Positions 7,064 to 59,248 of a DNA stretch of 64,000 bases are shown in pieces. A program made the position numbers and the translations under genes. Location: positions 1,696,001 to 1,760,000 of the forward strand of contig CAVOHZ010000010.1 of assembly GCA_963695855.1 (NCBI GenBank). Reading direction: 5' to 3'. Origin of the DNA: an uncultured Nitrososphaerales archaeon. GTDB taxonomy: Archaea > Thermoproteota > Nitrososphaeria > Nitrososphaerales > Nitrososphaeraceae. Below the pieces are notes generated by a model. It was not told the origin of the DNA. It ran no database searches and saw only the letters and a list, made by a program, of their open reading frames with translations. Within the stretch, counting starts at the first letter, position 1. Every line of letters starts with the position of its first letter.

Positions 7064-7131
7064 CTTCTTGTGACTATTGGAAAGTTTGACGTCTTAAAAT
7101 AAAAACCTTAGTTATAAACCCGTGAATTGAA

Positions 7132-7206
7132 TGGAGGGGATGGGATTCGAACCCATGACCACCTGCGTGTAAGGCAGGTATCCTAACCAGTCTAGACAAC
7201 CCCTCC
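7132..7206 (-). tRNA. tRNA-Val(TAC)
   Basis: Reverse complement GGAGGGGTTGTCTAGACTGGTTAGGATACCTGCCTTACACGCAGGTGGTCATGGGTTCGAATCCCATCCCCTCCA folds as a cloverleaf; anticodon stem CCTGC/GCAGG, loop CT-TAC-AC; no intron, CCA not encoded. Confidence 0.97.
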
Positions 7207-8198
7207 ACATTACTATAATCTTAATAGTTGAACTGTTTGATACATCGATATTAATAGTTTTTATCAGAAATTTATCGAATATAGAAATTTAATAAATCAT
7301 TTTATGAAATTATGTTTTATATATTCAGTTTTTAAATCATTTAATAGTTAAAATTGTAAATACAATTTATTTGATCATATTTGATGTGACAATCAAAAAA
7401 TAAAACGAAAAAATTCTATTTTAGTTTTATTACAGTATATTAGAAAATTTTGATTTATTCTATTGGATAATATTAATTTTAAGTTATGGAAAGTTCTTTC
7501 AAACAAAATACTAGTTATATGTCTGCTATCAAATTAAAAGCTGTTTCAGAGTGATCATTAATTAAAAAGATGATATTTAGCAAATATATAATAAAATGAA
7601 AAACAATTTTAATAAATATAGATGTATTTCCTTGGCATTTTATAAAAATAAAATATAGTATTAAATACCAAGTTTAAATGAAATAAGATGTATTCACTAA
7701 AAATTGTTAAACTAAGTCTATATAATATTTTAGGAAATATTACAAATTTTGATGATGGAAACAAAAAAATTTGAATAAGATATTAATCATGAAAAATGAT
7801 AATTTTTTTCGATATACAGTTATGATATATGTTTACAATTGATTTTATTATTTGACTCGAATTTCTAGTTTTACTATTAAAATTTTGCTATTTGATATAA
7901 TAGATATTTAATAAAGCAAAATACAACCTTTCTCTTTTTGCTTCAACAGTAGTATATTATTATAAAATTGTTATACGAACACTATATCTAAATAACGTTC
8001 AAGCTTATTATAAAAGTCTTAAATTTATTGAATAGCAAATATTGTAACAAAGTATTAAATTGCATATTTTGTTCTATCACTCTATTTTGAAATAAAAGAT
8101 TTCTAAATTTATTGTAATATTCTATATGTTAGAGCTATTCTTAGATATTTATAATACAATATTTTTAAATTGGGAAATGGAATCCACAGAATATAATA

Positions 8199-9521
8199 AT
8201 GACTGCAAAAGAATCATACGAACAAATCTTTGAATTAATGAAAAGTCATCACGATTGGTTTAATAACTCTATTCCACTAATTGCTAGTGAGAATGTTCCC
8301 AGTACTGCCGTAAGAGAGGCTATAATATCCGATTTTGGAAACAGGTATGCAGAAGGATGGCCTGGAGAAAGAGTGTATGCTGGTTGTATTTTCATAGATC
8401 AAGTAGAGATTATTTGTAATGATCTAGCAAGAAAGGTGTTCAAAGCAGAATTTGCAGATTGTAGAGCTACTTCGGGAGTAGTAGCAAATCTTGCAATCTA
8501 TTCTGGATTTACATATCCTGGTGATTACATGCTAGCAACGTCTATTCCTAATGGTGGACATATTTCTCATGGGAAGAAGGAACATTATGGTACTGCAGGT
8601 CATGTATGTGGATTAAATATTGAATATTTTCCATTTTCAAGGGATGAAATGACGATTGATGTAGATGCTACAAAAAAGAAGATTTTGGATATGGATAAAG
8701 ATGGCAAGTCTCCAAAAATAGTAATGTTTGGCGGCAGTTTATTTCTTTTTCCTCATCCAGTAAAGGAATTATCTGAATTTATGCATGAGCGTAACATGTA
8801 TGTAAATTATGATGGAGCTCATGTCGCTGGACTTATAGCAGGTGGCCAATTCCAAGATCCTTTAAGAGAAGGCGTTGATTCTATGACAATGAGTTCCCAC
8901 AAAACCTTATGGGGACCCCAAGGGGGAATAATAGTATCACTGGAAAAATATTCTGAGATCATTAAAAAATCGATATTTCCAGGAAATACTAGTAGTCATC
9001 ATTTGCATCATGTTGCAGGTAAGGCGATAGCATTAGCAGAAGTTATGGAATTTGGTGAAGACTATGCTAAACAGGTCATAAAAAATGCTAAAAAATTGGC
9101 TGAAAGTTTCGTTGAATCTGGATTTACTGTTTTGGGTGAAAAAAAAGGATATACACAATCACATCAAATTGCAGTTGATGTTTCAAAATATGGAGATGGA
9201 GGAACAATTGAAAAAGACCTTGAAAAATCGAATATCATTTTGAATAGACAATTACTTCCTGGAGATATTAAAGCAGGGAGACATTATATGCACCCAAGCG
9301 GTGTTAGAATTGGAGCTAATGAGATCACAAGATTAGGAATGAAGGAAAGTGAAATGATAGAAATTGCTACTTTTATAAAAAGAGTAGTAATCGATAAAGA
9401 AGATGCTATTAGTGTAAAGAAGGATGTTACTGAATTCAAGAAACAATATCAACAATTGCATTATGTTTTTGATGGACAGCTAGATGCATATAAATATATT
9501 AGTTTGGTAAAACAAAACTGA
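8199..9521 (+). CDS. glyA: Serine hydroxymethyltransferase
   Basis: LIASEN, YAEGWPGERVYAGC, GGHISHG, PLP-lysine SSHKTLWGPQGG. Confidence 0.97.
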   Translation: MTAKESYEQIFELMKSHHDWFNNSIPLIASENVPSTAVREAIISDFGNRYAEGWPGERVYAGCIFIDQVEIICNDLARKVFKAEFADCRATSGVVANLAIYSGFTYPGDYMLATSIPNGGHISHGKKEHYGTAGHVCGLNIEYFPFSRDEMTIDVDATKKKILDMDKDGKSPKIVMFGGSLFLFPHPVKELSEFMHERNMYVNYDGAHVAGLIAGGQFQDPLREGVDSMTMSSHKTLWGPQGGIIVSLEKYSEIIKKSIFPGNTSSHHLHHVAGKAIALAEVMEFGEDYAKQVIKNAKKLAESFVESGFTVLGEKKGYTQSHQIAVDVSKYGDGGTIEKDLEKSNIILNRQLLPGDIKAGRHYMHPSGVRIGANEITRLGMKESEMIEIATFIKRVVIDKEDAISVKKDVTEFKKQYQQLHYVFDGQLDAYKYISLVKQN

Positions 9522-9710
9522 TAAGATTGAAAAATTATTTCTTTTTTTATTCTAGTTGATGAAATGAAAATATTTGTGTATTTTGTAAGGAATTATTGGA
9601 TATTTTTTAAATCTATACAATTCTAAGGATTTCCTCATATAATGACTTTATTATTTACCCATTAGAGAGGTATCTTATTTTGAGTATAGGATCTTCATTA
9701 AAATATTAGA

Positions 9711-15307: not shown

Positions 15308-16350
15308 ATTTTTCATATAACATCATGAAGTTAATCTACTATACCAATAAATAATACGTTTAGCTAATTGAGAGTTATCAGATTTTAGCTAATAGCTATA
15401 AACAATATTACGGTTTTAGTAGACGGTCATATGTATCTGGTTATGCAATGCGTTAGTATTACTTTTGGTCATTTTATACAGCAACCTCTCTTTATGAAAT
15501 TGCTTGGCAGCAAGAGAAAAAATGGTTTATCATCATTATTTTTATGAATTTTGTATGAGTTTTGTTGTTTATATCTATTAGATCAGGTTCTATCAGTAGT
15601 TTTAATAAAATATTCTACGAATCGATCAAAGTCATACAAAAGCAGTACTAACCTATCATATTTTATTTCAAGATGTAATATGTGTGAGGATGTAATCCTG
15701 GACACTGTATTTATGCTATTTGTATTACAAAAGACAGAGATAACATAAATCTTCCAACTATTTCTCCTAATAAGATTGATTCAATCGTTACGTAAAATTT
15801 TATTATTTTATCTTGAAAACAAATTTGAGAATAACATACATTCAATGTTTTATCTAAAAAATACAGAGTAATCACCTGAATGTTTTGGACAAAGGCTTGG
15901 TAGCTATGGTAAAGGTGATAGAGGGGTAGCGTTTTGATATATATACGGTTTTTAATTGGTGTTTGATGGAAAATATAGCTGAAAATGAGCAGATATAAAC
16001 AAAACCTATTTTATCGGACATAACAGCAAAATAACCCTATAATGATAATGATACCATTTTTTCTATTGTTGCGCAAAGTCAAATGCTATTATTGAAGAAT
16101 CTCGTTTAGAATACACTTCTGAAATAGTACTATGGACAGTATTGTTCTATCAGATTCTGGTACATTATAGCTGTAAACAAAGAAATTAACAATCCTCGTA
16201 TAGCATAACACCATGTTGACCGAATTATGACCTTTGCACAAATTAGTTAACAAGATTTTGATATATTATTTTATGAATAAAAACACGTTCAAATTTACTT
16301 TTGTTAATAATATGTTAATTATTAAAAAAATAAAAATACCGTTTACTTCA

Positions 16351-16686
16351 GTCTCCAGTGGAAATAAAGGGGTTGAAAATAGAGCATTAACTAAATTAAC
16401 ATAAATTCAACTTTCCAGTGGAAATAAAGGGGTTGAAAATACAATTTCTTAATTTAATAATGAATATCTGTGATCTTTGTTAATAAAAAGTTTAATGCGG
16501 GACTTTTGGTTGTCTCCCCCTACATTTCTATTCCACAATATAATAAAAAATAAGATTAATAAAACTATATTTGTTTAATAAATTTGTTAATATTATTAGA
16601 TTTAGGGGTTTAAATTTATTTGTTAATAACAAGTTATCAGCAATATACAATATGTTAAAATAATTTCGAAAAGAAAAACAGGGGTG
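16351..16686. promoter_or_regulatory. Chromosomal replication origin (ORB boxes flanking an AT-rich unwinding element)
   Basis: TCCAGTGGAAATAAAGGGGTTGAAAATA at 16354 and 16414 (60 bp apart), AT-rich 16441-16495, inverted degenerate ORB CCCCCTACATTTCTATTCCA at 16516-16535, ORB-like GAAAAACAGGGGT just upstream of cdc6. Confidence 0.88.
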
Positions 16687-16717
16687 TGAGTTATATTTTA
16701 AATGGTGAGAAAATATA

Positions 16718-17941
16718 TTGAGTGACGATTTACTTAATAATATATTTGATGATGCAGTAAAAGGTAAATCATTAATTAAAAATCGTAAAATTCTGACAAT
16801 AGATTATGTACCTGAAAAACTTCAGTTTCGTGATGAAGAAACGATGACTATTGCACAAACATTATCAGTAGCTCTGAAGGGTTCTAGACCATCAAATCTA
16901 TTATTATTTGGAAAACCGGGTACGGGAAAGACTGCTGTTATAAAAAATGTTATTAAAAAATTCACGCAAAAATCATCCTCTCTCGGAATTGAAGTTATAG
17001 TACCATTTGTTAATGCGAAACTAGCAAATACTGCATACAAGGTATTATATGAAATTGCTGAAGAGATGAGTATTAACCAGATCGAAAAAAGAAACCAAGT
17101 TTATTTTACTGGTTTGTCTTTAGGTGAAGCAACTAATAGAATTCTTGATTTCATCCAAAAAAGAAAATTACATGTCATTTTTGTTATCGATGAAATTGAT
17201 TCACTAGTTGATAAAAATGGAGATGATATTCTTTATAATTTTACCAGGGCAAATGAACAGTTTCAAGATTCTGGATTTATTACATTAATCGGAATTTCAA
17301 ACAGTCTTACATTCAAAGATAAATTAGATCCTCGTGTGCGTAGCAGTTTAAGTGAAGAAGAAATTGTATTCAATCCATATAAAATTATTCAGCTGCAAAA
17401 AATACTATCAGAGAGAGTCAAGTTAGCGTTTTCTGATGATGTTGTCACAGATGGAGCTATAAATCTCTGTGCAGCTATTGCAGGAAAAGATAATGGTGAT
17501 GCTAGAAAAGCGATAGATTTACTTAGGGTAGCAGCAGAAATAGCAGAACGAGAAAAAGATTCTAAAATTGATGAAAAATATATTCGGTTGGCTCAAAATA
17601 AAATAGAGAAAGACACAAATTTCGAAGTGATAAAAAATTCAACTACTCATACAAAAATAGTTCTACTGGCAATTACTAAATCCAAAAATGGAAATACTGG
17701 TGAAGTTTATGAGATATATTCTAACTATTGTAAAACAATTGATAACGAGCCTCTCAGTCAACGTAGGATAACTCAAATTATAAGTGAACTTGATCAATTA
17801 GGATTAATCAATACTAATATATTGAATCAAGGTAGATACGGTCGTTCACAGAAAATAAAAATTTCTATTTCTACAGATGCATTAAAAGAAGCCCTAAAAG
17901 AAGATCCATTATTTCTTACATTGATCCATGTTCTTGATTAA
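16718..17941 (+). CDS. cdc6: Orc1/Cdc6 replication initiator
   Basis: Walker A GKPGTGKT, Walker B IDEID, LDPRVRSSL, GDARKAIDLLR, C-terminal wH domain. Confidence 0.96.
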   Translation: MSDDLLNNIFDDAVKGKSLIKNRKILTIDYVPEKLQFRDEETMTIAQTLSVALKGSRPSNLLLFGKPGTGKTAVIKNVIKKFTQKSSSLGIEVIVPFVNAKLANTAYKVLYEIAEEMSINQIEKRNQVYFTGLSLGEATNRILDFIQKRKLHVIFVIDEIDSLVDKNGDDILYNFTRANEQFQDSGFITLIGISNSLTFKDKLDPRVRSSLSEEEIVFNPYKIIQLQKILSERVKLAFSDDVVTDGAINLCAAIAGKDNGDARKAIDLLRVAAEIAEREKDSKIDEKYIRLAQNKIEKDTNFEVIKNSTTHTKIVLLAITKSKNGNTGEVYEIYSNYCKTIDNEPLSQRRITQIISELDQLGLINTNILNQGRYGRSQKIKISISTDALKEALKEDPLFLTLIHVLD

Positions 17942-37252: not shown

Positions 37253-37267
37253 TAAAAACTCTGTATC

Positions 37268-38077: not shown

Positions 38078-38272
38078 TTAAGCTTGTTTAATTATCTTTT
38101 TAAAATGTTCAAGATTCTTGGAAATCTCTTCATTCCAAGATTCTTCTGTATAACCATGTTCTTTTATACCATGTTCCTTAGCATTTTTCAAAACTTCCTC
38201 TTCTGTTTCACCATAAATGGTATGAGTACATACAGGGTCTCCTGCATCCTTGCAGTTGATTGAAAGAGTCAT
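38078..38272 (-). CDS. DUF1059-family small metal-binding protein
   Basis: CKDAG..C...I.GETEEEVL....EH...EHG. Confidence 0.85.
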   Translation of the reverse strand: MTLSINCKDAGDPVCTHTIYGETEEEVLKNAKEHGIKEHGYTEESWNEEISKNLEHFKKIIKQA

Positions 38273-38381
38273 ATTGTATTTTATTATTAGATTAGAAATT
38301 ATTTAAACATGATCTAATCAAAAAATATGGATGAATTATTGATGTTGTTAAATCATTCTCTATTTAACTACTGGAGTTGAG

Positions 38382-38428
38382 CGCCGAGAGTGGGACTCGA
38401 ACCTCGAAGCCATACAACTGGGTTTATA
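38382..38428 (-). other. tRNA 3'-end fragment (T-arm plus acceptor strand, discriminator G) with arm motif GGGTTTATA
   Basis: Reverse complement GGTTCGAGTCCCACTCTCGGCG; no D or anticodon arm; GGGTTTATA at 38420. Confidence 0.7.
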
Positions 38429-38666
38429 CTGTTAAATTTAAAAGTTCTAATTATTCCCACAATAGGAAATAAATTATTTTAAACCTTTTCTAACATTGTT
38501 AAAAGAATAATTTTATATTGTATTATGTAACGTACACTGGAGAAACAAATACATAGGAATTTGCCAAGAGTTATTATTCAAGAACTATTTTGGACAATAT
38601 TTAGAAATTCGATGAAAAATTTTAAAAAATATTATTTCTATTACTCTCAACGCTAGGAATTAAGTC

Positions 38667-39710: not shown

Positions 39711-39849
39711 CTTAAGTTTATTGGACTAATTATTATCATTATTTGGTATACCAGTCTTTGAAATTGTAAAGTGATCTATTATTATGTTATTTTGAAAGCT
39801 AGTTATAGTAGTAGTTCTCTTATCTTAGTTTTATTTACTTATTTATTTT

Positions 39850-40038
39850 ATGGATAATATTTATTTTATGGATAATAATACTCGTATCAGAAAATTCTTA
39901 ACTTATAAATCGTACATATATAGTAAGTATATTTGTATTCCGAAAGACTTTGAAAAATTAAATTTGGAAGAAAACCAATTAATGAAATTAATGTTAAATG
40001 AAAATAATCAATTAATTGTTACTAGATTAGAGATTTAG
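39850..40038 (+). CDS. AbrB/MazE-like small DNA-binding protein
   Basis: SKYICIPKDF.KLNL....L.L.L......LIV pattern. Confidence 0.5.
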   Translation: MDNIYFMDNNTRIRKFLTYKSYIYSKYICIPKDFEKLNLEENQLMKLMLNENNQLIVTRLEI

Positions 40039-40039
40039 A

Positions 40040-40310
40040 TATATCTTTAAAACAATCTTCTCTTCAGGAAACTCAAGATCCCTGTCTAGTTCTAATGCTT
40101 TTTCTATATCATCTTTATAAATACGACCCAGTTCACATTTGGTTTTTTGCTTTGTTATACTAAGCATCAGCATATTTTGGATCTGTCTCCAAAGCCTTGT
40201 CCAAAAGATTCAAGCCTCTTTCATATCTACCAAGTATGTCAAGAACATTGCCTTTGTTATAGTAGGTTAGAACATATTTTGGATCTATATCTAATGATTT
40301 CTATAATAAT
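40040..40310 (-). pseudogene. TPR-repeat protein relic
   Basis: IDPKYVLTYYNKGNVLDILGRYERGLNLLDKALETDPKYADA*YNKA... with an in-frame stop. Confidence 0.75.
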
Positions 40311-40684
40311 TTTAGGGGAAACTCGTACTTTTTCTGTAATAACAACTTGTAGAAAGTAAGAAAAGATTATATTTATTATCTTCAATTTCTACATATTTAT
40401 CAATATAGTGTTTTTGCAAAGGTTTCCATTTGTTACCATCTTTAAAATCATATTCTAATTCCTCTATTTGAAAATCATGTACACTAAAAGTTTCGTTCGA
40501 ATTTTTGGAAATTAACATTAAATCTTTTGACAAAGCAATATTGCTGGTATAGATATAACGAAAAAATGATTGCAAATGAATAATTGTTGTTGCAGAAAAA
40601 TTGAGGAAGATATTTGTTATGTGTTATCTTCTGTGCATAACAAGTATCAGTTATTGTTGCTTGCTGTTTCTGTTCGTATCATGT

Positions 40685-41443
40685 TCATACTTTTGTTGCA
40701 GGTAGCACCAATATTTGACCGACCATGTTAGGCAGGTGTACGTGACAGACATAATTTATGATTCCCGGATTGTTTGCTATGAATGATACAGTATTGATTT
40801 GTCCTCTCATAAGTTCGAAGTTTCCTACTCCATCGACCGTAATTACATGATGTGCTCCTTGTACTCCTATGAAATGGAGAGTGACTTTATCGCCTTGGTT
40901 AACCACTATTTGATTTGGAGCGAATGCAAATGATCTAAAGTCCCAAGCTCCTGCTTTATTTGGTTCTGTTATCTTGATTCCTCCTCCAGTTGGTATAGTC
41001 GAATTTGCAGGAGGCTGCTCTGCTGGATGTAGTGGAGTATTCTGGGGACAAGTATCACATTTTACGGCAGCGTTTATGTTTGTCATTCCATCAAAATGTA
41101 CTGTATTTATCCAGAATTCCTTGTTCGTTGTTTGATTTGGGTTAACTGCTTTTACTGCTGCTCCAGTCATACTACTACTTGCTGATGCAGCCTTGTACTC
41201 ATTTGGTGTTTCTGTTGTTGTGCTTTTTGCAGGTTGGTAAACTTCTTGTGTCATTGCTTTCTGTAAGTTTTGAGTATTGTTGATGCCAATTATCATAGCC
41301 CCTACCACTGATGCAGCTATGATTGTCACAGCCATTAGCTGTGCTTGTTTTAAATCTATTATTTTTTTTCGATTCATTTTGTAGATGTAATATGTTCTAG
41401 TTTTCATATAAACAAGGAGACAAATTCCATCTCTGAATTTCAC
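40685..41443 (-). CDS. Membrane-anchored cupredoxin (type-1 copper) protein; likely start MNRKK at ~41377
   Basis: TM segment, F.PNQIVVNQGDKVTLHF, GAHH, YVCHVHLPNMVG (C-x2-H-x3-M); extra CDTC motif. Confidence 0.85.
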   Translation of the reverse strand: MKFRDGICLLVYMKTRTYYIYKMNRKKIIDLKQAQLMAVTIIAASVVGAMIIGINNTQNLQKAMTQEVYQPAKSTTTETPNEYKAASASSSMTGAAVKAVNPNQTTNKEFWINTVHFDGMTNINAAVKCDTCPQNTPLHPAEQPPANSTIPTGGGIKITEPNKAGAWDFRSFAFAPNQIVVNQGDKVTLHFIGVQGAHHVITVDGVGNFELMRGQINTVSFIANNPGIINYVCHVHLPNMVGQILVLPATKV

Positions 41444-41462
41444 AAATGGAATTCGTCTAACT
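41422..41462. promoter_or_regulatory. Palindromic operator-like sites GAATTCCA-N4-TGGAATTC (two overlapping imperfect copies)
   Basis: 41435-41462 matches the reverse complement of 42785-42812 at 24/28. Confidence 0.65.
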
Positions 41463-41627
41463 AAGGCAAAAATAGCAAAATTATTTTCAAAATCAGTTTA
41501 AGTATTTCTCGATCTTTGTTATAATAAATATTCTTCTTTCGCAAATGAAGAAAAAAGAACTACGCTTATTGCATCTATAATCGTTAATATATTAAATACG
41601 AACTAGATAACAAGAAATCAGAGAATA

Positions 41628-41981
41628 ATGATAGTTCAAAGCCAAAGAGCAAAGAAAGCACTCCTAGCTGCTTTGGCTGATGAAGAAATGACTAAAATCT
41701 TGGATTCTGTTATGTATCAATCTAAATCTATTGCTGATATCACAAGAGAAAATAATATTGCACATACTACATGCTATAGAAAAACCAAATGGCTAATTAA
41801 CGAAGGACTTGTTATAGTTGACAAAATTGTTATTACACCGGAAGGAAAGAAATTTAGTTTGTATCGTAGTGTTTTCAAATCTATAAACGCAAAATACGAA
41901 ATCAATAATGTAATTGTAGAAGCTGAACAGAATTTTGACATTGTAAAAAAGACAATGGCATGGTTTTATTCATTAGAATGA
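41628..41981 (+). CDS. ArsR-like winged-helix regulator
   Basis: LLAALADE...KIL...KSIADI....IAHTTCYRK...L...GLV...GKKFSLYRS. Confidence 0.82.
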   Translation: MIVQSQRAKKALLAALADEEMTKILDSVMYQSKSIADITRENNIAHTTCYRKTKWLINEGLVIVDKIVITPEGKKFSLYRSVFKSINAKYEINNVIVEAEQNFDIVKKTMAWFYSLE

Positions 41982-42011
41982 TGATCATAGGAATTATAAT
42001 AACACAACAAC

Positions 42012-42410
42012 TCAGTTATTGCTGCTACTAGTAGTCCTACTACCACCATTACTATTATCATTATCTATATTACTTTCAATCATCTTTTTTCCTCGTTTTT
42101 CTGCATAATAAAATCTAAACCACATTATAATAGTGAAAACGATTGCAGAGCCAACATGAATTTGCGATCCAATATTTGGTGGCAAAGTTGAAAATATAGC
42201 AATTCTATTATTCTCTATTATTTCTCCTAAAATGTAAACTGCAATAAATATTGATATTTGAAATTGGAATGCTTTAATGCTCTTGGATCTTACTGCAAGC
42301 CACATGAATATGATCAACGGTATGAATGACAGAATAAGTGTAATATCACTCATAGAATGCAAAAAATAAGAAGTACTGATAGTATTGTTAATTTCAAATA
42401 TATTTATCAA
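42012..42410 (-). CDS. Small 3-TM membrane protein
   Basis: Hydrophobic segments with intramembrane His residues; 4-bp overlap with the upstream gene. Confidence 0.7.
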   Translation of the reverse strand: MINIFEINNTISTSYFLHSMSDITLILSFIPLIIFMWLAVRSKSIKAFQFQISIFIAVYILGEIIENNRIAIFSTLPPNIGSQIHVGSAIVFTIIMWFRFYYAEKRGKKMIESNIDNDNSNGGSRTTSSSNN

Positions 42411-42721
42411 GTGTTAAACTCCTGCTGTTGTTGTTTTTTTGCTTTAAACGTACTTATAAGATACATTACTGCGAACAAAAGCAATGCCATCATCGATAAT
42501 GGTTCTAGAAATCCTTTTGCCAATAATCTAAAACCAAGAGTTCCAACAATGTGGTAGAAAACCTGAATTAAAATAAATCCAATAAGTATTATGGTTAATT
42601 TTGTAAGATGATTATTATTATTGATACTGTTTCTTGATTTTAAAATAAAGTATGCTGGAATTATAGCAGCAACGATGTAAACAATAGCGTCAATAAGATT
42701 ATAATATTGAGTTTCCAGCAT
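42407..42721 (-). CDS. Small 3-TM membrane protein
   Basis: Three hydrophobic segments; QVFYH. Confidence 0.7.
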   Translation of the reverse strand: MLETQYYNLIDAIVYIVAAIIPAYFILKSRNSINNNNHLTKLTIILIGFILIQVFYHIVGTLGFRLLAKGFLEPLSMMALLLFAVMYLISTFKAKKQQQQEFNT

Positions 42722-42784
42722 TTTTAGACTAATTCACCACTATTTAACAACTAATACTTTATAATTATATTGAACATTAAAAGT

Positions 42785-42812
42785 AGTTATACGAATTCCA
42801 GTTTTGGAATTC
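42785..42812. promoter_or_regulatory. Perfect 8-4-8 palindrome GAATTCCA-GTTT-TGGAATTC upstream of the membrane-protein pair
   Basis: Read directly at 42793-42812. Confidence 0.7.
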
Positions 42813-42916
42813 ACACATAAAATTCGTGTCTATTCTTATTAGAGCAATAAAGCAGATCGTAGAATAATGAATAATGAATAACATAAATCCTTTTATGAAA
42901 TATCAGAAATAAAAAA

Positions 42917-43186
42917 ATGAATTTGAGAAGCTACAGAAGAAACACCAAAATATACCTTGCTATGGTAGATCCCTGTCTTGTTTATAACAAGCATGTTCCA
43001 GCTGTTTACAATAAGGATACTCATTATGTAATAAATGAAAAGTTAACGTTAGAAATACTCAAGAAAATTTCTGATTGTGAACAAGTATTACAAATCAGTG
43101 ATGAATACACAGGCTGCTCTGCAACCATGGATGCATTATATGAGCTTAATCAGAGAAATTCCTCTAAATACAGTTTCTATGGATAA
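42917..43186 (+). CDS. Hypothetical protein or fragment
   Basis: 89-aa ORF, no recognisable motif. Confidence 0.35.
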   Translation: MNLRSYRRNTKIYLAMVDPCLVYNKHVPAVYNKDTHYVINEKLTLEILKKISDCEQVLQISDEYTGCSATMDALYELNQRNSSKYSFYG

Positions 43187-43329
43187 GGATGTGTTTTTAG
43201 ATAATAAAAATATAGCTGTTGAACAAGAAGTAAAGAATATCAAACTTCAAAATTAATTAGACTAGACTTTTCATTTAAGAGAAGTATTATCAAATATTAA
43301 ATATTATTAGAATTTCAAAACTGTCCTAA

Positions 43330-43410
43330 TTTATTAGGTAAGAAAGGAAAAAGTTATAACAATATTTTTTGAAATATACAATCCTAATCCTGTACCTTTA
43401 TCCTATTTCA
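43330..43410 (-). pseudogene. Histidine kinase HATPase fragment
   Basis: Encodes DKGTGLGLYISKNIV; TTTTTTGAAATATACAATCCTAATCCT is shared with the intact kinase at ~43597. Confidence 0.65.
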
Positions 43411-43469
43411 TTACAAAATTAACTTATCCATTATTTATCCATTTATTTACTATTATCAATAATGTCAAC

Positions 43470-45287
43470 TCATTCAAGTTCTTTCTCTTGTTTGCTTACA
43501 TTGCTTAATGGTATGGTAAAATAGAATACTGCTCCACCTCTATGATCTTTATCATTGTTCTCTGCCCATATCTTTCCACCATGAGCTTCAATTATGTTTT
43601 TTGAAATATACAATCCTAATCCTATTCCTTGAAAGGATGTTGTGATAAACTTTGAAAATAACTTTGGAAATATTTCTGAATCTATCCCTTCGCCTGTATC
43701 CCTTACAGTTACCATGGCATATCTTTCATCCATTTTCTCGGCATTAACAAATATCTCTCCTTCTTTAGTAAATTTTATGGCATTACTTATAAGGTTAGAA
43801 ATTACTTGACTAATTCTTTCTTTATCTGCCTCCACGATTAAAGTTTCTTTAGCTGTTTTAGAAAATAACTTGATATTCTGCCTACCGTCATCTTCTATCA
43901 GTGTACAATAGTCATTTACGACGGTTGATAATAGATCATTTAAATTGAAAGGTTCCTTTTCCAAATTTAGTGATTTGCTTTCAATTCTAGTGACATCCAA
44001 TATTTCGCTAGATAGTCTTTGAAGTCTAGTGGCATTTCGTTGTATCCCTTCTATGAACTGTTCTTGTTTTTCAGGATGCATTGACAACAGCTGTGAAAAA
44101 TTTAGAATAGATTGAGTTGGTGTTCTTAATTCATGTGCAGCTACATTGATAAATTCTTTTTGCATCGTATCATTCTTTTGCAAATCTTCATTTGCGCTTA
44201 AAAGTGCTTTATTAGATTCTTCCAGTTGTGCTGTTCTATGCTTTACTTCTTTATCGAGATTCCTGTTCCATTTTACAAGAAATATTATTAGAATAATGAC
44301 TGCCAATGTAAATGCCAAAATTAATGAAAATAGTTTTACTCTTTCTAAAAAAAGAGCCTGTTCTATAGAAGAATAGATTGATTCTATAGGACTTATAACA
44401 AAAACGAAATAGCTAGGTTCTCCTTGTAATAGAATTGGTTGACCAGTGTTCAATCTTTCACCACTTCCAAAATTATATACGGCAAAATCTTCAGATAAAT
44501 TATTTGAGAAGACCTTACGATAATAATCATTTTGAATATCATTAAAATTAAAGAATGATTGAACTTTATCACCAAAAAAATTTTCACCAAATAATTGTGC
44601 CCTAGGAGTAGCAATATAATTTGCATTTCTATCATAAGCCACCAAGAAGCTTGAATTTATATTGTTAATATTTCCATAATGGGCAAAAAAATCCTTGCTA
44701 GGTATCTCAACCCCGATAAGACCAATATACCGACCATCTTCTCTATTTATTATTGGAGCTATTAATGAAATTTTGTATTTATCATCCATTCCCTTGTAAC
44801 CATCAGAAAAGATAGGTTTTAATTTACTTTTTACCTGTTGAACATACTCTCTAAAGGAGATATCTATATTTACAAAGCTTCTTTGCCCCTCTGATACTAT
44901 GTTATAGGTCATTATATCATCACTATCAGCAATAAAAAGTCCATCGACTTTGGTAATGGCAGCAATATCTCTAAATTTCTCATTAAATAATTTTTCAATC
45001 CTCTCTCCATATAATTCGCCTTGTTGTAAATATATAGAATCAGTCAGTCCTTGGAGAATTGACATTATTAATTTTAGATCAGAGCTAATATGTTCCGCCA
45101 TAACTTTAGTGGATTCAATCTGTTCATCTCTTTGTTGTAAAAACATTTCATTCTTTATATTTTCCTCAGCAATCTTTTCCTGATAATAAAACAAACTATA
45201 AGATATGATAATTATCAAAATCATAGAAATAATACTTAATTTACTTTTATTATCGGAAAGAAAACGAAGAGATGAAATTAGTGTCAT
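43470..45287 (-). CDS. Membrane sensor histidine kinase (Cache-type extracellular domain, HisKA, HATPase)
   Basis: Two TM helices, H box AAHELRTP, N box NLISNAIKF, DTGEGI, GLGLYIS. Confidence 0.93.
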   Translation of the reverse strand: MTLISSLRFLSDNKSKLSIISMILIIIISYSLFYYQEKIAEENIKNEMFLQQRDEQIESTKVMAEHISSDLKLIMSILQGLTDSIYLQQGELYGERIEKLFNEKFRDIAAITKVDGLFIADSDDIMTYNIVSEGQRSFVNIDISFREYVQQVKSKLKPIFSDGYKGMDDKYKISLIAPIINREDGRYIGLIGVEIPSKDFFAHYGNINNINSSFLVAYDRNANYIATPRAQLFGENFFGDKVQSFFNFNDIQNDYYRKVFSNNLSEDFAVYNFGSGERLNTGQPILLQGEPSYFVFVISPIESIYSSIEQALFLERVKLFSLILAFTLAVIILIIFLVKWNRNLDKEVKHRTAQLEESNKALLSANEDLQKNDTMQKEFINVAAHELRTPTQSILNFSQLLSMHPEKQEQFIEGIQRNATRLQRLSSEILDVTRIESKSLNLEKEPFNLNDLLSTVVNDYCTLIEDDGRQNIKLFSKTAKETLIVEADKERISQVISNLISNAIKFTKEGEIFVNAEKMDERYAMVTVRDTGEGIDSEIFPKLFSKFITTSFQGIGLGLYISKNIIEAHGGKIWAENNDKDHRGGAVFYFTIPLSNVSKQEKELE

Positions 45288-46366
45288 TATTTTAATATTT
45301 CAGGTACTACGATTTTTCCGTCAATTATATCTTGTTTTAATTGTTGTATTCTAGTTTTTACATTTTCAGGAACAATCTTATCTAAACTATGGAATGAGGA
45401 TATATAGACAACACCATCACCTGCTGCCCCTTTGTTCATCTCCAAACCAGGTTTAAATATTTGTCCAGAAAAATTTCCATATTGGACCATATTAATAACA
45501 CTATCTAACGATTTTTCCACATCTAAAATAAATGAACTAAGAACATTGTTGGGAGCCAATTTATTTTGATCGGATACCGCTCCAAATACATATATTCCTC
45601 GTGTCTTAGCAGCTTCAATAACTCCATGACCAGATGTGTCTGCTACTTGCAGTAAAAAATCTGCTCCTTTGTTTATTAAATCATTTGCTGACTTTTTCCC
45701 TTTAATTGGATTGTCCCAGTCGTCTAAATAGATATCAAGTACTGTGATATTAGGATCAACATAAGCGGCTCCTCTCTTATAGCCTTCATATATATTTATT
45801 ATATTTGGATATTTTTCTCCACCTATAAAACCAATTACCTTCGTCTTTGACATCATTGCTGCTAATGCTCCTAACAAATATGTTCCTTCTTGCTGCATTG
45901 GAAAAATGGATGCAACATTCGAAGAATTAACTAGACCTGTAAAAACTATAAATTTTGTATCAGGATAGTCTTTGGCAACCTTAATTGTGGGATCCCCCCA
46001 TTCAAATCCATGGGATATAATCAAATCATAATTTTTACTTGCATAATCTCTCAAAGTCATTTCTATATTAGGAATATCAACATTTTCTTTAAAGTTTATT
46101 TCATGACCATATCTTAAATTTAATAATTGTACCGAATTATACCCAAAAGCTGCCCATCCTGCATCACTGAACAAACCGTCGGTTAATAAAGCAATTTTTA
46201 GCTTTGAATCCGAAATATTCGTTGTTACATTTAATGAAGAAATGCTCAATGACTTGGTAATATTATCGGTATCAGTAATGCCATAAACAAAATGAAATAC
46301 TGTAAAAAATCCTATAGATATAACAAGTATCCCTGAAATTAAAACTATGGCAAACCTGTTATACAT
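45287..46366 (-). CDS. BMP-family (PnrA/Med-like) substrate-binding protein
   Basis: D.GW...GY, YDLIISHGFEW, EGTYLLGALAAMMSKT..IGFIGG, SDQN.LAP; stop overlaps the kinase start (TAATG). Confidence 0.88.
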   Translation of the reverse strand: MYNRFAIVLISGILVISIGFFTVFHFVYGITDTDNITKSLSISSLNVTTNISDSKLKIALLTDGLFSDAGWAAFGYNSVQLLNLRYGHEINFKENVDIPNIEMTLRDYASKNYDLIISHGFEWGDPTIKVAKDYPDTKFIVFTGLVNSSNVASIFPMQQEGTYLLGALAAMMSKTKVIGFIGGEKYPNIINIYEGYKRGAAYVDPNITVLDIYLDDWDNPIKGKKSANDLINKGADFLLQVADTSGHGVIEAAKTRGIYVFGAVSDQNKLAPNNVLSSFILDVEKSLDSVINMVQYGNFSGQIFKPGLEMNKGAAGDGVVYISSFHSLDKIVPENVKTRIQQLKQDIIDGKIVVPEILK

Positions 46367-46734
46367 ATATTATTACTTAGTCAAGCAACAATATTCTTTA
46401 TTAAGATTACAAGTAATTATTAATAGTTAATTTAACAAAGAAATAAGATGAGTCTATTTCATAAAAATTTCATAAAATTATCTTTTATTTTTTTTAACTT
46501 TTAGCTTTTTAAAACATATTGTTTTGCATTTTGAATTCAAAGAACCAGATTTTTATCTTTTATTCTTTTTTCAGCCATTTTGAACTAAAATTGAATATTG
46601 AGCATGAAAAAAATGTAAAAAAGAACCTAAAGTGAGATGTAGTATAGACAGTTTCAGTAGTTATTATATTCTTATTCTTGTCATAAAATATAGTGTTACA
46701 AAATGTCTTTTGTATTGATACTCATAACACAATT

Positions 46735-47025
46735 CTAATTCAAATGTTCAATAGCCTTTTTTAAATCTTCAAATACCATTACTGGATGAAATTCAACTTT
46801 GGCTCCTAAATCCTGAAATAAGGGTTCTGCTATTGATGGTATCATATCAGCACTTTCGATGTTAATGATAAATGCAAAGGTTCTATCACCACCTGCTTCA
46901 AAGAAATATGCTGCTTCTGCCTTCACCTTCTGTATGTAATTCTCAAGTTCTTGTAAGAATTTTGGATTTTTTACCAGCTTGTTGCCTGCTTCTGTTGGTA
47001 TCTGTGCTCTAACTAAAAATCTCAT
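46735..47025 (-). CDS. Small conserved ferredoxin-like-fold hypothetical (GYD/DUF3303-like)
   Basis: EAAYF....G.RT...EPLFQ.L.AKVEFHPVM..EDL. Confidence 0.65.
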   Translation of the reverse strand: MRFLVRAQIPTEAGNKLVKNPKFLQELENYIQKVKAEAAYFFEAGGDRTFAFIINIESADMIPSIAEPLFQDLGAKVEFHPVMVFEDLKKAIEHLN

Positions 47026-47199
47026 ATGTTGTTTCTAATAATATTATGTCTCTTTAAACTTTCTATAGTTAAGTTAACGTAATGAAATGAATTATTAAAT
47101 TTATATGATTATTCCAAAAATTATTAAAAATCTACTTTACGATTATAAATAATAGTTTTGTATAGTAGTACAGATATGTGATTAGTTCTAGCTCTTCTT

Positions 47200-51994: not shown

Positions 51995-52382
51995 TATTAT
52001 TATATATTTATTATAAGGTTTTTAAATATGATCTTTTAGGTATAAATTAAACTCTTAAATTATATCACATGAAAATTTTTTGATGTCGAAGTTAAAAAAA
52101 CAACTAGATAATAGTAAAAATAATTATCCTAATTTTAATTTTAATTCTTTAGATGAAAATGCTATCTTGAATCTACTAAAATATGATTCTGTTATATCTT
52201 TTGATGATCTAGTTTCGAAATTAAATATAAACAATCCCAGATTATAATTGATACTCTTACAAAATTAATTGAAGATGAAATTATACTACTAAAACAGGAA
52301 GACGATACGTTGTATTTTAGTCTTAAATATAAATAGAAAAATATTATTTTAGAGATAAATTGGATATAAAATACCATTTTTG

Positions 52383-53060
52383 TCATTTAATTATTTTGAA
52401 TTCATCTAAAACTTCTCCGTCATTGGAATAGTATTTACCTATTAACGTATTTCCGTTATAATCTACATCGACGTTTAAAAATCCATAGCTGGAATCTTGC
52501 TGGTATACGATATAAGGTTCCTCGTTGGTAAAAGGATCAAAATTAACTCCACCAGTTCCTACAATAATTTGAAACATTCCTTTATGGGGTGTGTATTCAG
52601 TTTTGCCGTTATCGTTAATAATTGGTTGTGATTGATGGATTTATTTTATTATAAGATAGAGGATATGTTCTTTGATAATTATGGGCATGACCACTAAACA
52701 GTATATCTACACCATATTTTTCAAATAGTGGATGGTATGTATCTCTCAATTTTTTTATTGGATCACAAGAGTCATGATCTCCGCAGAGTGAAGAATATTG
52801 TTGTCTATAAGTCATAACAATAATACACTTTATATCCGGATTTTTTGACGCCTGTGACAGATCTTTATCAACATATTCATATTGTTCTGTTTCTTCAACA
52901 TCTGAGAAACGATCTTCATCACCAACACTGTATGTAGATTTAGAAGACATCATTAGAAAATGGATATTTTTGTAATCAAATGAGTAATATGGATCGGATA
53001 ATCCAAAGTTTTCCATATATTGATTGAAAATGGTTGGCGTCATATAATCATGATATACTC
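52383..53060 (-). pseudogene. Purple acid phosphatase-like metallophosphoesterase, 5'-truncated and frameshifted
   Basis: YYSFDY.NIHF, LFEKYGVD..FSGHAHNYQRTYP, then IIVGTGG...YGFL in a second frame. Confidence 0.8.
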
Positions 53061-53578: not shown

Positions 53579-53667
53579 CATCATTAACATCATTAATAAT
53601 TGATTTCTATAAAAATATATCAAAATTTGTGTAAAATCATCTAAATAAACTATAATAAGATTAAATA

Positions 53668-54927
53668 ATGTATTGTATAAAAGTCATTATTATCACTTTG
53701 TGCCCAATAACTCAGATTCAAGACAAAAGTCATATTTTAGGAATCTATTCTTCACCACAGAGAAAAATAGAAGATGGTTTAGAATATCTTAGAATTGGAT
53801 TTGAGGAAAAAAATGAAGCAATATTAATGATTACTAATGAACTAACTAAAAATGAACTTAGAAATGAAATAATAAAAAGATGGAAGATTTCTCCAAATAA
53901 ATTGGCAGACCTAGAAAAAAATTCCATTATAAACATCAAAAGTTCTACAGAAGTCTATTTTTCGACTAATAGAATAGATCGTGACAAGATTGGCAAACAG
54001 TTTTCTGATCTAACAAATAAAGCAATACAGAAACGAAAAAGAGGTCTAAGGGCATTTGGAGATGTCAAAATCTTTTTTGAAAGAGGATATGAAAAATATA
54101 TTATTGAATTTGAAAAATCATTTCCACCTTCATTTGATTTTCCAATGACGTCTATTTGTGCTTATGATTTAGATGATTTTGAAAAGTTAGATCATCGATC
54201 TAGAAAAATACTTTTTGATCATCACAACCTACATCTTACAAATAATCTATTTCGAAATATATTTGATGATTCATTTTCTCTTAGTCTGACTGAACATATT
54301 TGTATGTATTATGAGAACGAATTACAATCTCCTTCTTTTTCTGATTCTTTTGTAACTAGTCTATCACGATATCTTGGTGAAGGATTACTACACGATCAAT
54401 TATGTATTTATCTTTCTATGCATAATATGAAAAAAGATCATCCAAAAACAATACTATCACAACTTGCTAATCTAAAAAAGTCTCCAATAAAAAAAAAATT
54501 TATCGTAATTAAAAATAGTGATGATTATTACATCAATGCAGTACGTAACAATCTAAAACCATTTGAAGATTTAAAAAAAGAAATTTTTGAGAAAGCAATA
54601 GTAGGCAATAAAAAAGATATTAGAATAGTATGTGATATTCCAAATTTTCTATTTAGATATAAACATTTTGATCAGTGTATTGCTCTAGAAGAATGGTGGG
54701 ATCAAACAATAGAAGAATTGAATAAAAATCATGGATTAAATGTATCGTTATTATGTCTATATGATAGTAATAATTTTAAAAATATTCCTTTTAAATATCA
54801 TAGATATAGAATAAATGATATTCATAGTATTGTTTGTGATTCGGAGGGAATAGTACACTCAAAATATTCAAAATTTGATTCACTAACAAATAAGATGAAA
54901 AGTGAGAAAGGAGGAGAAGGAAGATAA
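53668..54927 (+). CDS. Tandem MEDS-domain sensory protein
   Basis: HILGIY...YLRIG...GLRAFGD...ICAYD and HICMYYE...LGEGL...LEEWW...LLCLY. Confidence 0.82.
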   Translation: MYCIKVIIITLCPITQIQDKSHILGIYSSPQRKIEDGLEYLRIGFEEKNEAILMITNELTKNELRNEIIKRWKISPNKLADLEKNSIINIKSSTEVYFSTNRIDRDKIGKQFSDLTNKAIQKRKRGLRAFGDVKIFFERGYEKYIIEFEKSFPPSFDFPMTSICAYDLDDFEKLDHRSRKILFDHHNLHLTNNLFRNIFDDSFSLSLTEHICMYYENELQSPSFSDSFVTSLSRYLGEGLLHDQLCIYLSMHNMKKDHPKTILSQLANLKKSPIKKKFIVIKNSDDYYINAVRNNLKPFEDLKKEIFEKAIVGNKKDIRIVCDIPNFLFRYKHFDQCIALEEWWDQTIEELNKNHGLNVSLLCLYDSNNFKNIPFKYHRYRINDIHSIVCDSEGIVHSKYSKFDSLTNKMKSEKGGEGR

Positions 54928-55932
54928 ATGTTAGAGGATATCGGAAATCATAATAATGAGATTTCAAATAATAATAAGAAAAAAACAATAATACTTGTTA
55001 CAGGTAATATTCAATATTATCAACAACAATTTAATAATTATAATATCAATAAGTACAAAATAACATTCATCAATTGGAATGACATTTTGTCTTTTCTTAC
55101 GAATTTTGATGATACTAAACGTAAAAACCTTGAATTAATTATTTTAGATATTCCTACAGCAGCAAAAGATGCAAAGACCAATCAGATATCTACTAGCACT
55201 ATCAGAGAAATCAAAAAAATATTTTATGATACAAGAATATTTTTTATGTTACCATTCGAATCTATGATAGACAATTTACTATCTAAAGCAATATGTAAAC
55301 AAGAAGATATTCGCCTTCAACCATTTTCAGTATTTGATATAATAGATTTAATTTCCATCACAAAGAAAAATGAAAGGCTTGATCGATTACAATTAAAAGA
55401 TCACTGTATGTATATATATTCTTCTGTTGACGATAAGGTCAAGGACGCAATTAAATTTCTAAAAATAGGAATAGAAAATAATGAAATGACTCTACTACTA
55501 TTAAGCAGAGAGATTGATCCTTCTTATCTGCTATGTCAAATTGCATTACATGATATTGATATAAGTAAATTACAGAATAACGGATTATTGAAGATTGCCA
55601 ATACTGAAGAATATTATTTATCCTTTAATCAAAAAGACAATAAAATTAACACAGTAACAGTAGATAATAAAAAAGTACATAGCAACTTCTTTAATTTAGC
55701 AGATCAAGTTAACAAGAGAGAAGGAATTAATGGATTGCGAATATTTGCTATGCTTGATTGTTTCTTTGAACATGGTTTAATTGATGAATTAGTTGATTAT
55801 GAATGTGAAACTCCATTTAAATTTAGCAAACCAATTCTTGGGATATGTGCTTATAATGATAAACATATAGCACAATTATCAGAAGATCAAATCAGAAAAC
55901 TAGTATTAACTCATAGTAGCGTTTGGATATAA
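54928..55932 (+). CDS. Degenerate receiver-like domain + MEDS domain protein
   Basis: LIILD...QPFS N-terminal half; DHCMYIY...FLKIG...GLRIF...GICAY...H C-terminal half. Confidence 0.75.
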   Translation: MLEDIGNHNNEISNNNKKKTIILVTGNIQYYQQQFNNYNINKYKITFINWNDILSFLTNFDDTKRKNLELIILDIPTAAKDAKTNQISTSTIREIKKIFYDTRIFFMLPFESMIDNLLSKAICKQEDIRLQPFSVFDIIDLISITKKNERLDRLQLKDHCMYIYSSVDDKVKDAIKFLKIGIENNEMTLLLLSREIDPSYLLCQIALHDIDISKLQNNGLLKIANTEEYYLSFNQKDNKINTVTVDNKKVHSNFFNLADQVNKREGINGLRIFAMLDCFFEHGLIDELVDYECETPFKFSKPILGICAYNDKHIAQLSEDQIRKLVLTHSSVWI

Positions 55933-55977
55933 TTTATTATTTCCTTCAATTTTTTATAATTATATTCTATTTATTAA

Positions 55978-56400
55978 TCACAATACTATCAATCGTTCTT
56001 TTTTATCATCTTGTTGTTGGTAGTTGTATAAAAGTGAATGAATGTTACTTCGTAGTTCGTTTAACCAGATTGGTTTGTATATAATAATCTTTTCTATATC
56101 TGGATTGTTTTTCTTTAGATGTTCTATATACTCTTTATTTGTAGCAGTAATAAATCTAAATAATAGAGCTTGATCTATATTTTTCAATTTTTTAGATAAT
56201 TTCATTCCATTCATTTTAGGCATTTTCAAATCCAGTAAAGCGAGATTATATACATTTTTTTTAAAACAGTACAAAGCATCAATAGGATCGGTAAAAGCAT
56301 CAACTTTATATCCATCATATTCTAAAAATGTTTTAAATAGATTAATGAGATCTTCATCATCATCTACTATTAATATATTTTTACCTTTTGGAATAGGCAT
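55978..56400 (-). CDS. Stand-alone response regulator receiver
   Basis: ILIVDDD, LLDLKMPKMNG, FITA, KPI. Confidence 0.92.
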   Translation of the reverse strand: MPIPKGKNILIVDDDEDLINLFKTFLEYDGYKVDAFTDPIDALYCFKKNVYNLALLDLKMPKMNGMKLSKKLKNIDQALLFRFITATNKEYIEHLKKNNPDIEKIIIYKPIWLNELRSNIHSLLYNYQQQDDKKERLIVL

Positions 56401-56660
56401 TTTTACATGCTCACATTATTAAACAACAACGTCCTTTATAAAGATGAGAGGGAATTATTAACAGTTTGATTTAAGAGATTAACATTTGTCTCAATAGGTG
56501 TAAGATTATAATATTTTCGAGAATAATTTTGAATATTCCAGATATAGTAGTATTCTTCACAATTCAGAAGTTTTTCTATTTCCCAATAATGGAATGCAAT
56601 TATCCATATTTTTGCTATGTTAGAAGGAGTCATTATAAAAAACGTGTACAGCGTCTTTTT

Positions 56661-57843: not shown

Positions 57844-57944
57844 AAGTAAATGCATTGCTTTATAAAATGTGTTTATTCTTTGGTAAAGTTTCTTTTTGGG
57901 CATAAGTTATTTATACTTATAGTATTTTTTGATCCTTTCTTAAA

Positions 57945-58130
57945 TCATGAAAAAGATATTGTTGAAAAAAAAACTCCGGCTGAAAGAGCAGCAAGATCAT
58001 CTCTAATTCTTTCGGGATAACAAATAAAAATGGACAAAATAGCACCAATGAGAAACGCACTTGAAACTACAGTAGATAATAATAAAGTATTTAAGATTTC
58101 AAAAAATTCATTATTCACTATAATATTCAC
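57945..58130 (-). pseudogene. ZIP-family metal transporter N-terminal fragment
   Basis: SSAFLIGAILS...LAALSAGVFFSTISFS then a premature end. Confidence 0.55.
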
Positions 58131-58788
58131 AAATTAATATGCTAATTTGAACTAATAGCTTAAAACTTAAATTAATACTCATTATAAAAGCAATATAATT
58201 TTTGTAAAGTTATTTTTTATCATAATATGAAATATTTTATTTTAGATTAAATCTATTAATGTGTCTATTACTATAAAACATTTTAATCAAAACTGCTATT
58301 AATTTTTAACAAAACAAAGGAATGTTTATTTGTCATAGACTTTAACACCATATAAATGGGATTACATTCACGATTTTCTACCATTAGGTATTTTTATCAT
58401 CTTTGCTTTTGATGAAAAAGCTAATTGAAGTAAAATTTTTACTTTAATATCAAATAAATTCGAGATAAAATAATAAAAAAGTAAAATTGAATTAAAAAAA
58501 TTTGTCGAATATTGAAAAATAAATATTTTTACATATCTTAAAAGAATAACAAATAAATTTAAATATATTCTCACTGATGTTTTCATTTTAAATATACTAC
58601 TAATACAAAAATCTGTTTGCACGGTTCATCTTTTAACTTAACAGTAGGGTTCTACTACATAATTAGCAAGATGCTCGGGAGTGGAACCGTCCATGTAGTA
58701 CGGTTCTACTACCATGTATTTAGCTTTTATTATTAGAAACTTAATTAAATATAAAAATCAAAATCCGTTTAATAGTTTGTCATTTATC

Positions 58789-58971
58789 TTACTGAGATTT
58801 TCTATTATGAAGAGCATCTTTTTGGATTAATATGAATATCATTTGATAAAAAGAAATTCCTAATTTTAATGCCTCAAAATCTATATTTTTTATTGTTTCA
58901 TTATTTGATGAAGATAGTATAAATTCATCAATAATTTTTTTGAATTTAAAATCATCATGGTGTTGGAACAC
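58789..58971 (-). CDS. Small hypothetical protein
   Basis: IDFEA.KLGISFYQM pattern; short. Confidence 0.45.
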   Translation of the reverse strand: MFQHHDDFKFKKIIDEFILSSSNNETIKNIDFEALKLGISFYQMIFILIQKDALHNRKSQ

Positions 58972-59180
58972 AAGCTTAGTCTATCAATATAGTTATTATT
59001 AGTTTCTTAGAAATGTTAATGACATGCATGCATAACGTTTGACTACTAGTATTCTAGAAAGACCAATGATAAATGAATTCTATAAAAAAATAATTATCAT
59101 TAAGTCCGTTTAAAAATAATGAATTACCTAAGTGGTCTTTACTCTTTTATTAGGGATGTAAATAATCCATCATTGGCATT

Positions 59181-59248
59181 GAGGGGATGGGATTCGAACC
59201 CCTATATGTATTCACGGGTTTATATTTTAGTATCGCTAGAGTAATAGA
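59181..59248 (-). other. Exact 21-bp copy of the tRNA-Val 3' end followed by an inverted 15-bp arm motif (att-like site)
   Basis: GAGGGGATGGGATTCGAACCC = 7134-7154; ATTCACGGGTTTATA (59210-59224) is the reverse complement of 7113-7127. Confidence 0.85.

Follow-up and report, generated by a model that had tools for sequence, protein, structure and literature searches.

The stretch analysed here (the window) is 64,000 nucleotides long, spans C10:1696001-1760000 on contig C10 of an uncultured Nitrososphaerales archaeon, and belongs to a genome of 3.55 Mb in 11 contigs with ~31% G+C. The genome is Candidatus Nitrosocosmicus-like and encodes an archaeal AmoA, and the host is a soil ammonia-oxidising archaeon. 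Two sites in the window, 52 kb apart, carry the same 21-nt core taken from the 3' part of a tRNA-Val gene, and each core is accompanied by a 15-nt arm; both are attachment (att)-type sites. We refer to the element that leaves the window on the left as E1 and to the one that leaves it on the right as E2; an arm in inverted orientation at a left end is written arm'. The features at the two sites are as follows.

1-7133, no strand assigned: right-hand 7.1 kb of E1, delimited with the help of a third core and inverted arm at C10:1677965-1678009.
5552-7063, minus strand: E1 tyrosine integrase, 503 aa, intact (Pfam Phage_integrase, PF00589, 2e-8; Phage_int_SAM_4, 1.3e-5).
7113-7127, plus strand: right-end arm of E1, TATAAACCCGTGAAT, with an exact inverted copy at the E1 left end.
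7132-7206, minus strand: intact tRNA-Val(TAC) gene (ARAGORN; Rfam RF00005, 64.5 bits).
7134-7154, plus strand: 21-nt core, attR of E1, covering the acceptor 3' strand, T-stem and T-loop of tRNA-Val.
59181-59201, plus strand: exact 21-nt Val core, left junction of E2 (shuffle test and genome-wide match).
59202-64000, no strand assigned: left 4.8 kb of E2, which measures 17.9 kb in all and ends at C10:1773057.
59210-59224, minus strand: left-end arm' of E2, ATTCACGGGTTTATA, identical to the left-end arm' of E1.
59231-59246, plus strand: 16-mer TATCGCTAGAGTAATA, common to the E1 left end, with close variants also after Ser-type left ends.

Read on the plus strand, the left site consists of arm, 6-nt spacer, and core, and the right site of the identical core, an 8-nt spacer, and the exact reverse complement of the arm. 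The letters and coordinates that the original prediction had given for both sites are all correct, its description of arms that lie outside the 52-kb interval and face outward is accurate, and both are indeed att-type sites of tRNA-Val-targeting elements. The cores at 7134 and 59181 are identical over 21 nt and no further, with a t/g difference at the left edge and a c/a difference at the right. Allowing up to 3 mismatches, the 21-mer had two matches in the window, and the 15-mer arm (up to 2 mismatches) also had two, against a mean of 0.26 in the control. Genome-wide, the exact arm occurs three times, always 6-9 nt from an exact core, and the third set, which the core and arm search proposed with the original prediction brought to light, comprises core, 9 nt, and inverted arm at C10:1677965-1678009. 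Weaker core copies at C10:1667368 and 1689249 sit in sequences that are repeated elsewhere in the genome. One such sequence of at least 150 nt is found at C10:1689249, C8:44162, and C8:195473, with a near-Val core mid-way and an arm'-like ATTCANTGGTTTGTG; both flanks are conserved in the three copies, as if an attP or junction were carried as a unit.

Could the repeat be a product of chance or of assembly? The genome is repeat-rich and remains in 11 contigs, but not one of 100 shuffles contained even a single core match, there are three exact core-plus-arm sets, and a 380-nt contig from metagenome run X1 bridges 59116-59495 with 0 differences. The latter also counts against the misassembly that the original prediction had allowed for, although this contig may derive from the source sample and is possibly not independent. 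We regard either as hardly credible. The four metagenome runs compared with the window consist of assembled contigs, in which rare forms are not visible.

E1 occupies C10:1677986-1703133 (25.2 kb core to core) at the 3' end of the tRNA-Val gene. Its left end, 18 kb to the left of the window, is the third core and inverted arm, and because this copy is on the integrase side of the tRNA, E1 has an ordinary pair of ends. These ends carry an exact 21-mer direct repeat (C10:1677965 and 7134) and arms that are perfect inverted repeats (15/15), and the tRNA is kept intact. The integrase open reading frame (ORF) ends 50 nt from the arm, at the tRNA-proximal end of the element, and 2999 of 7855 candidates were relatives of the protein at E<=1e-3; the named ones are tyrosine recombinases of Nitrosocosmicus and Nitrososphaeraceae. 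Pfam assigns the E1 cargo to a SNF2-type helicase-methyltransferase (10-2169) and, further left, a D5_N/DUF5906 primase-helicase and an HNH protein. The original prediction had taken 7113-7154 and 59181-59224 as a complementary pair, yet the partner of 7113-7154 is the third copy 25.2 kb to its left. An attL/attR pair of a single element is likewise contradicted by the outward-facing arms, the host DNA in the interval, the integrases outside it, and the third exact copy.

The 40 nt to the left of C10:1677965 align with the E1 right end (local alignment score 14, P 0.0002), and a three-piece integrase pseudogene (C10:1675793-1676621) lies immediately to the left, so C10:1677965 is a junction with an older tandem element. 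The tRNA-Val and glyA searches covered 15 same-genus relatives, and the surrounding DNA was compared with G001, G012, and G014. Comparison with G001 puts the return to host DNA near C10:1662 kb, and the island at tRNA-Val measures 10.9 kb in G001 versus ~41 kb here; G001, G012, and G014 have differing DNA downstream of the same tRNA-Val. Copies of this tRNA are 99-100% identical in 14 of the 15 relatives. In 12 of the 15, glyA is on the same contig as tRNA-Val and no more than 1 kb away, and at least three of these have a contig break at the tRNA-Val 3' end. An apparent second tRNA-Val in G001 (two 100% matches) was rejected, as it is the same gene at overlapping contig ends.

E2 leaves the window rightward, and 59181-59224 is its distal (left) end. 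Its window part encodes PsbP_2-like ORFs and, on the minus strand, two paralogous members of a ~250-aa family that is present in many copies (59335-60087 and 60313-61392). Further right are a PriX-domain protein, a 694-aa protein, and an integrase of 529 aa (C10:1771459-1773048), which is on the same strand as that of E1 and ~11.5 kb past the window end. Right of this integrase are a different arm, GTAGAACCCACATCC, and then a different tRNA-type core, GCGCCGGGAGTGGGACTCGAACCC. The two ends of E2 are thus non-cognate, with a Val core and arm' on the left and a tRNA-Ser-like core and unrelated arm on the right (the label refers to likeness of the core to tRNA-Ser(GCT) at C10:1611067-1611150), and the best inverted match between the two arms is 5 nt (GGGTT). 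Contig C2 holds a second copy of the final 1581 nt of E2 (92% identity), and this copy directly adjoins a genuine tRNA with an intron, beside a Hel308-type helicase. The original prediction had also considered that a second tRNA with the same 3' end and its own integrase might lie to the right; the integrase was found, but the right core is tRNA-Ser-like and no second tRNA with the Val 3' end was found on the contig.

The left ends of E1 and E2 are homologous over 82-84 nt only (81-82% identity). The sites at C10:1677965 and 59181 have the core, arm', and 16-mer in common, and their spacers and everything past ~82 nt differ, which argues for homologous ends of distinct elements and against a recent duplicate. 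The E2-specific left end had 0 matches in the genome contig collection.

The right core of E2 is directly followed by the left end of a further element, E3, whose arms are cognate (16/16, or 21/23 when extended) and whose integrase has 486 aa (C10:1793474-1794934); beyond E3, at C10:1795000, there is one more core together with one more left end. Full-length, same-strand integrase paralogs were located at C10:1771612-1772907 and C10:1793492-1794877 (52% at the aa level) and at C2:3013-4290 (55%), and only four integrases of the family are intact and full-length genome-wide. We found 12 left-end relics in the genome (T-arm half, spacer, and arm' with GGGTT) versus 0 in a reversed-sequence control, and one Ser-type arm class has six left ends versus two right ends. 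Orphan left ends are therefore the rule in this genome. The inverted arms may represent integrase-binding sites, because each of three arm types lies beside one of three integrase types. The ~250-aa family seen in E2 has at least 15 copies genome-wide and no Pfam match, and five tandem paralogs of it are found at the E3 left end (C10:1774744-1779518).

The right-hand locus is, by comparison with relatives, an old integration hot spot. In G012, the response regulator is succeeded by features in the same order: a decayed Val-type left end (16/21 of the core, and a single change in arm'), then a Ser-type junction, and finally a Ser-type right end; here too no tRNA is present. G014 has a reduced Ser-type remnant at the same locus. 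In a separate observation from G014 (C9:870-940), a Ser-type core is cut short and meets an arm of a different class, ACTACTGGAGT, that is in opposite orientation; the break is at the palindromic TCGA of the T-loop and could be an inversion scar.

On this evidence, 7113-7154 and 59181-59224 are very probably ends of two different members of one tRNA-targeting integrative element family. E1 is a 25.2-kb element in the tRNA-Val 3' end, with 7113-7154 as its proximal and C10:1677965-1678009 as its distal end, and E2 heads a second, tRNA-less array (E2, E3, and a remnant) in the old hot spot across the origin. E2 itself would be a chimera in which a Val-type left terminus of ~65 nt is joined to a tRNA-Ser-like remainder (body, integrase, and right arm). 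To judge by its mismatched ends, such a chimera most likely arose via homologous recombination or deletion between neighbouring related elements of an array.

Several results weigh against this explanation. The model does not explain why an array that has no tRNA and is mostly of Ser type has, as its leftmost core, a perfect copy of the Val sequence, and the same left end as that at 59181 may sit on a different core half elsewhere: a contig of run X4 is exact over 59188-59420, and the 75 nt to the left do not fit. There is no arm-like sequence left of 59181 (the 40-nt flank scored 6, with an empirical P of 0.71 from 5000 random 40-mers), so the site is not a simple tandem Val-Val junction, and a decayed Val arm at this position, considered as a candidate, was dropped on the same score. 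From 59201 to the end of C10 we found neither a tRNA gene nor a Val-like core with up to 3 mismatches, and the lack of a tRNA at the right end leaves the array without an assignable original target. No empty site was found at either hot spot in any relative examined, and exact-match scans of the viral and genome contig collections for the joined arm-core-arm' pattern returned 0 records.

The right-hand hot spot might once have had a second tRNA-Val-type target (a gene copy or pseudo-tRNA), in which case the 59181 core would be its preserved acceptor half and the tRNA body would be lost or lie past the contig end. In the 2002 survey of tRNA integration sites by K. P. Williams, the crossover is reportedly placed at the T-loop, and a crossover there would leave the acceptor half of the target at the leftmost junction of an array. 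A metagenome scan for Val-type left ends returned only two loci. At one, there is a junction in which the right arm is a different one. At the other, L035, the T-loop, spacer, and arm' are the same but the acceptor half is non-Val, as expected of target-derived left halves. L035 and the X4 contig fit this acceptor-half rule, and they point to either a lost Val-type target or cross-use of cores. C10 also ends 50 kb to the right with the array not closed. However, a lost target has to be set against the contig right of 59201 without tRNA or Val-like core, the right end of the G012 array, where no tRNA remnant was detected even at E<=10, and the second tRNA-Val of G001, which is an overlap of contig ends. 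We consider this explanation improbable, and the preferred one remains that of ends from two different family members.

As a separate matter, although the genome is rated 99.9% complete, ARAGORN called only 27 tRNAs in it; many tRNAs with introns therefore escape detection. The tRNA gene on C2 (C2:4438-4560) is ~123 nt long and contains an insert, and its acceptor and T arms are clear. Rfam missed it at the gathering score, and the sole Rfam match was that of the T-arm to the tmRNA model (E 0.016). A call of this gene as Ile(GAT) with a 46-nt intron, made by relaxed ARAGORN only, was not trusted. A reading of C2 as a continuation of the C10 right end is not supported: in G012, the tRNA-adjoining helicase is on C15 and the array is internal to C18.

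The DNA between the two sites and at the approach to the right-hand one contains the following features.

7207-37849, no strand assigned: conserved host block (Pfam, and collinearity with G014 and G012).
16333-16441, plus strand: two direct repeats resembling origin recognition boxes (ORB), the likely oriC; 49-nt copies 60 nt apart, with TCCAGTGGAAATAAAGGGGTTGAAAATA in common.
38383-38428, plus strand: solitary tRNA-Ser-like core (3 mismatches), 9-nt spacer, and arm' ACAACTGGGTTTATA.
57850-57931, no strand assigned: 82-nt mobile-element debris (blastn, 82% to C10:1763494-1763577 and 81% to C10:1805438-1805520).
58675-59094, no strand assigned: dispersed ~400-nt repeat with copies on C3 (two), C8 (two), and C6.

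By these comparisons, the 52 kb is ordinary syntenic chromosome that is not rearranged relative to relatives. Its host genes at 8.2-30.1 kb (Pfam) include glyA, PolD DP2, PcrB, cdc6, PolD DP1, a CdvA-like gene, ACS, ThyX, and FEN1. The segment 7120-37849 is collinear with G014:C9 in eight blocks (85-96% nt), as are 44107-46419 and 46637-47154, and 8147-32053 is collinear with G012:C18 (~66-84%); the MEDS and response-regulator genes at 53592-56403 are on the same side in G012. The integrases are encoded outside the interval between 7113-7154 and 59181-59224. The ORB-like repeats, which we take to resemble the archaeal boxes and which are probable origin recognition boxes, lie ~280 nt upstream of cdc6 (16718-17941), and the presence of this cdc6/origin block in place in G014 and G012 counts against an integrated plasmid or virus that carries its own origin and cdc6.

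The collinearity also bears on a chromosomal rearrangement (a translocation, or a duplication followed by deletion) that would have moved the far end of the tRNA-Val element across the origin, with 59181 as the scar of integrase- or homology-driven reshuffling around oriC. Such an event would account for a perfect Val-type half at 59181 with no tRNA-Val nearby and for the non-cognate ends of E2, and integrase-linked large rearrangements are documented in Thermococcales (PMC8371274, in the part drawn on here). It is nevertheless unlikely: the interval is collinear with two relatives and the tRNA-Val/glyA neighbourhood is kept in 12 of 15, the direct orientation of the cores is geometrically impossible from a single inversion, and E1 already has its own complete pair of ends. 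Furthermore, with a Val-type relic in the same relative place in G012, the event would have to predate both species or recur.

With an intact integrase next to 7134 and with exact cores in direct orientation and exact arms at both sites, an attR x attL deletion is formally allowed. The original prediction had noted that recombination between the direct repeats would formally yield an origin-bearing circle of 52 kb. A stronger reading is a working inside-out pair, with 7134 and 59181 as substrates of the E1 integrase and a 52-kb circle bearing oriC, cdc6, and PolD as the product. However, no joint involving 59181 was present in the four metagenome runs, whose contigs are blind to rare forms and uninformative on rare excision; moreover, the spacer is 8 nt at 59181 versus 9 nt at the left end of E1 itself, E1 has a cognate partner, and once the circle had left, 3.5 Mb would lack this origin. 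We judge a working pair of this kind to be extremely improbable. Hardly better are the prospects of a bolder conjecture, that the E1 integrase occasionally excises a 52-kb circle with oriC, cdc6, and both PolD subunits and leaves an arm-core-arm' scar in the chromosome. If true, a mobile-element recombinase could in this manner break up an archaeal chromosome, with the origin on a minireplicon and the remainder left origin-less. As a milder version, Val- and Ser-type elements might cross-use each other's T-arm cores and so seed tRNA-less arrays.

The synteny comparison suggested with the original prediction thus bears out its placement of the 52 kb on the host side of both junctions. Its description of the 59.2-kb site as the displaced far end of this or a sister element holds for a sister element, but nothing is displaced. 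The bracketing of oriC is incidental, with two separate hot spots flanking a conserved origin-proximal block, and neither the origin circle, of which the contig-only runs gave no sign, nor an origin inside an excisable segment is supported.

The solitary core at 38383-38428 lies within 6.2 kb of unknown ORFs without a counterpart in G014 (37849-44107), and its left flank resembles another arm class. The debris at 57850-57931 resembles a gene found inside E2 as well as inside the C10 right-end region. The first ~100 nt of the repeat at 58675-59094 are far more abundant than the rest; a ~100-nt sequence at 58638-58746 has at least 30 copies across contigs and may be a miniature inverted-repeat transposable element or the end of an insertion sequence. 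All four metagenome runs have their highest depth in a spike at 58640-58773, and parts of 57970-58640 are without cover in them. Elsewhere, an rve-type transposase fragment (189 aa) lies beside a 158-aa protein with four RTX calcium-binding repeats (36679-37802), and a metallophosphatase/purple acid phosphatase gene is probably broken at 52192-53043, where its pieces are spread over three short adjacent ORFs.

The outcome is a well-resolved case of two hot spots that flank an origin-proximal core, with tandem and chimeric elements, orphan left ends, and an arm sequence that tracks integrase type. It can serve the annotation of mobile DNA in Nitrosocosmicus, and it calls for caution, with a genome-wide search before att-like repeats are paired.

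Among known systems, the integrase of pTN3 drives chromosome inversions in Thermococcus (Cossu et al. 2017, as related in the part of PMC8371274 considered here). Both cases have scattered tRNA-derived att sites, active integrases or intact genes for them, and a proposed rearrangement of the origin region, but here the integrase gene is intact with att outside it at the tRNA 3' end, and no rearrangement relative to relatives is seen. The integrases are not of the suicidal pTN3/SSV type: the ORFs of 503, 529, and 486 aa are intact, and att lies outside them. Further parallels are the arrays that re-use one integration site, the element-in-element chimeras of Thaumarchaeota, and the module exchange by homologous recombination between tandem elements, as described in the relevant passages of PMC6563490 and PMC8371274. 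As in the archaeal tandem arrays of PMC8371274, related elements share a site and an orientation and lie adjacent to each other, an arrangement that leaves room for chimera-making recombination, whereas here the recombination that would have made E2 is deduced from its mismatched ends.

The cryptic integrated elements of Thaumarchaeota surveyed by Krupovic et al. (2019; PMC6563490), with tyrosine recombinases and tRNA 3'-part targets, provide the nearest comparison, to the extent of the passages covered. The genus name Nitrosocosmicus has 0 occurrences in the main text of that paper, and perfect inverted arms 6-9 nt outside the core, as seen here, were not found in those passages. The present case differs in having two arrays of several elements, one of them without a terminal tRNA and one member non-cognate. 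The direct repeat has 21 nt here versus a survey median of 17 bp (mostly <26 bp), and the elements measure 18-25 kb versus a median of 17 kb. In both, the integrase is at one end, the 3' part of a tRNA is targeted and the tRNA stays intact, and the cargo includes a primase-helicase and a methylase; chimeric and nested elements are reported there as well. The pattern of E1 and E2 is that of tRNA-targeting cryptic integrated elements of Thaumarchaeota, arranged in arrays and including one probable chimera, which is a common island pattern.

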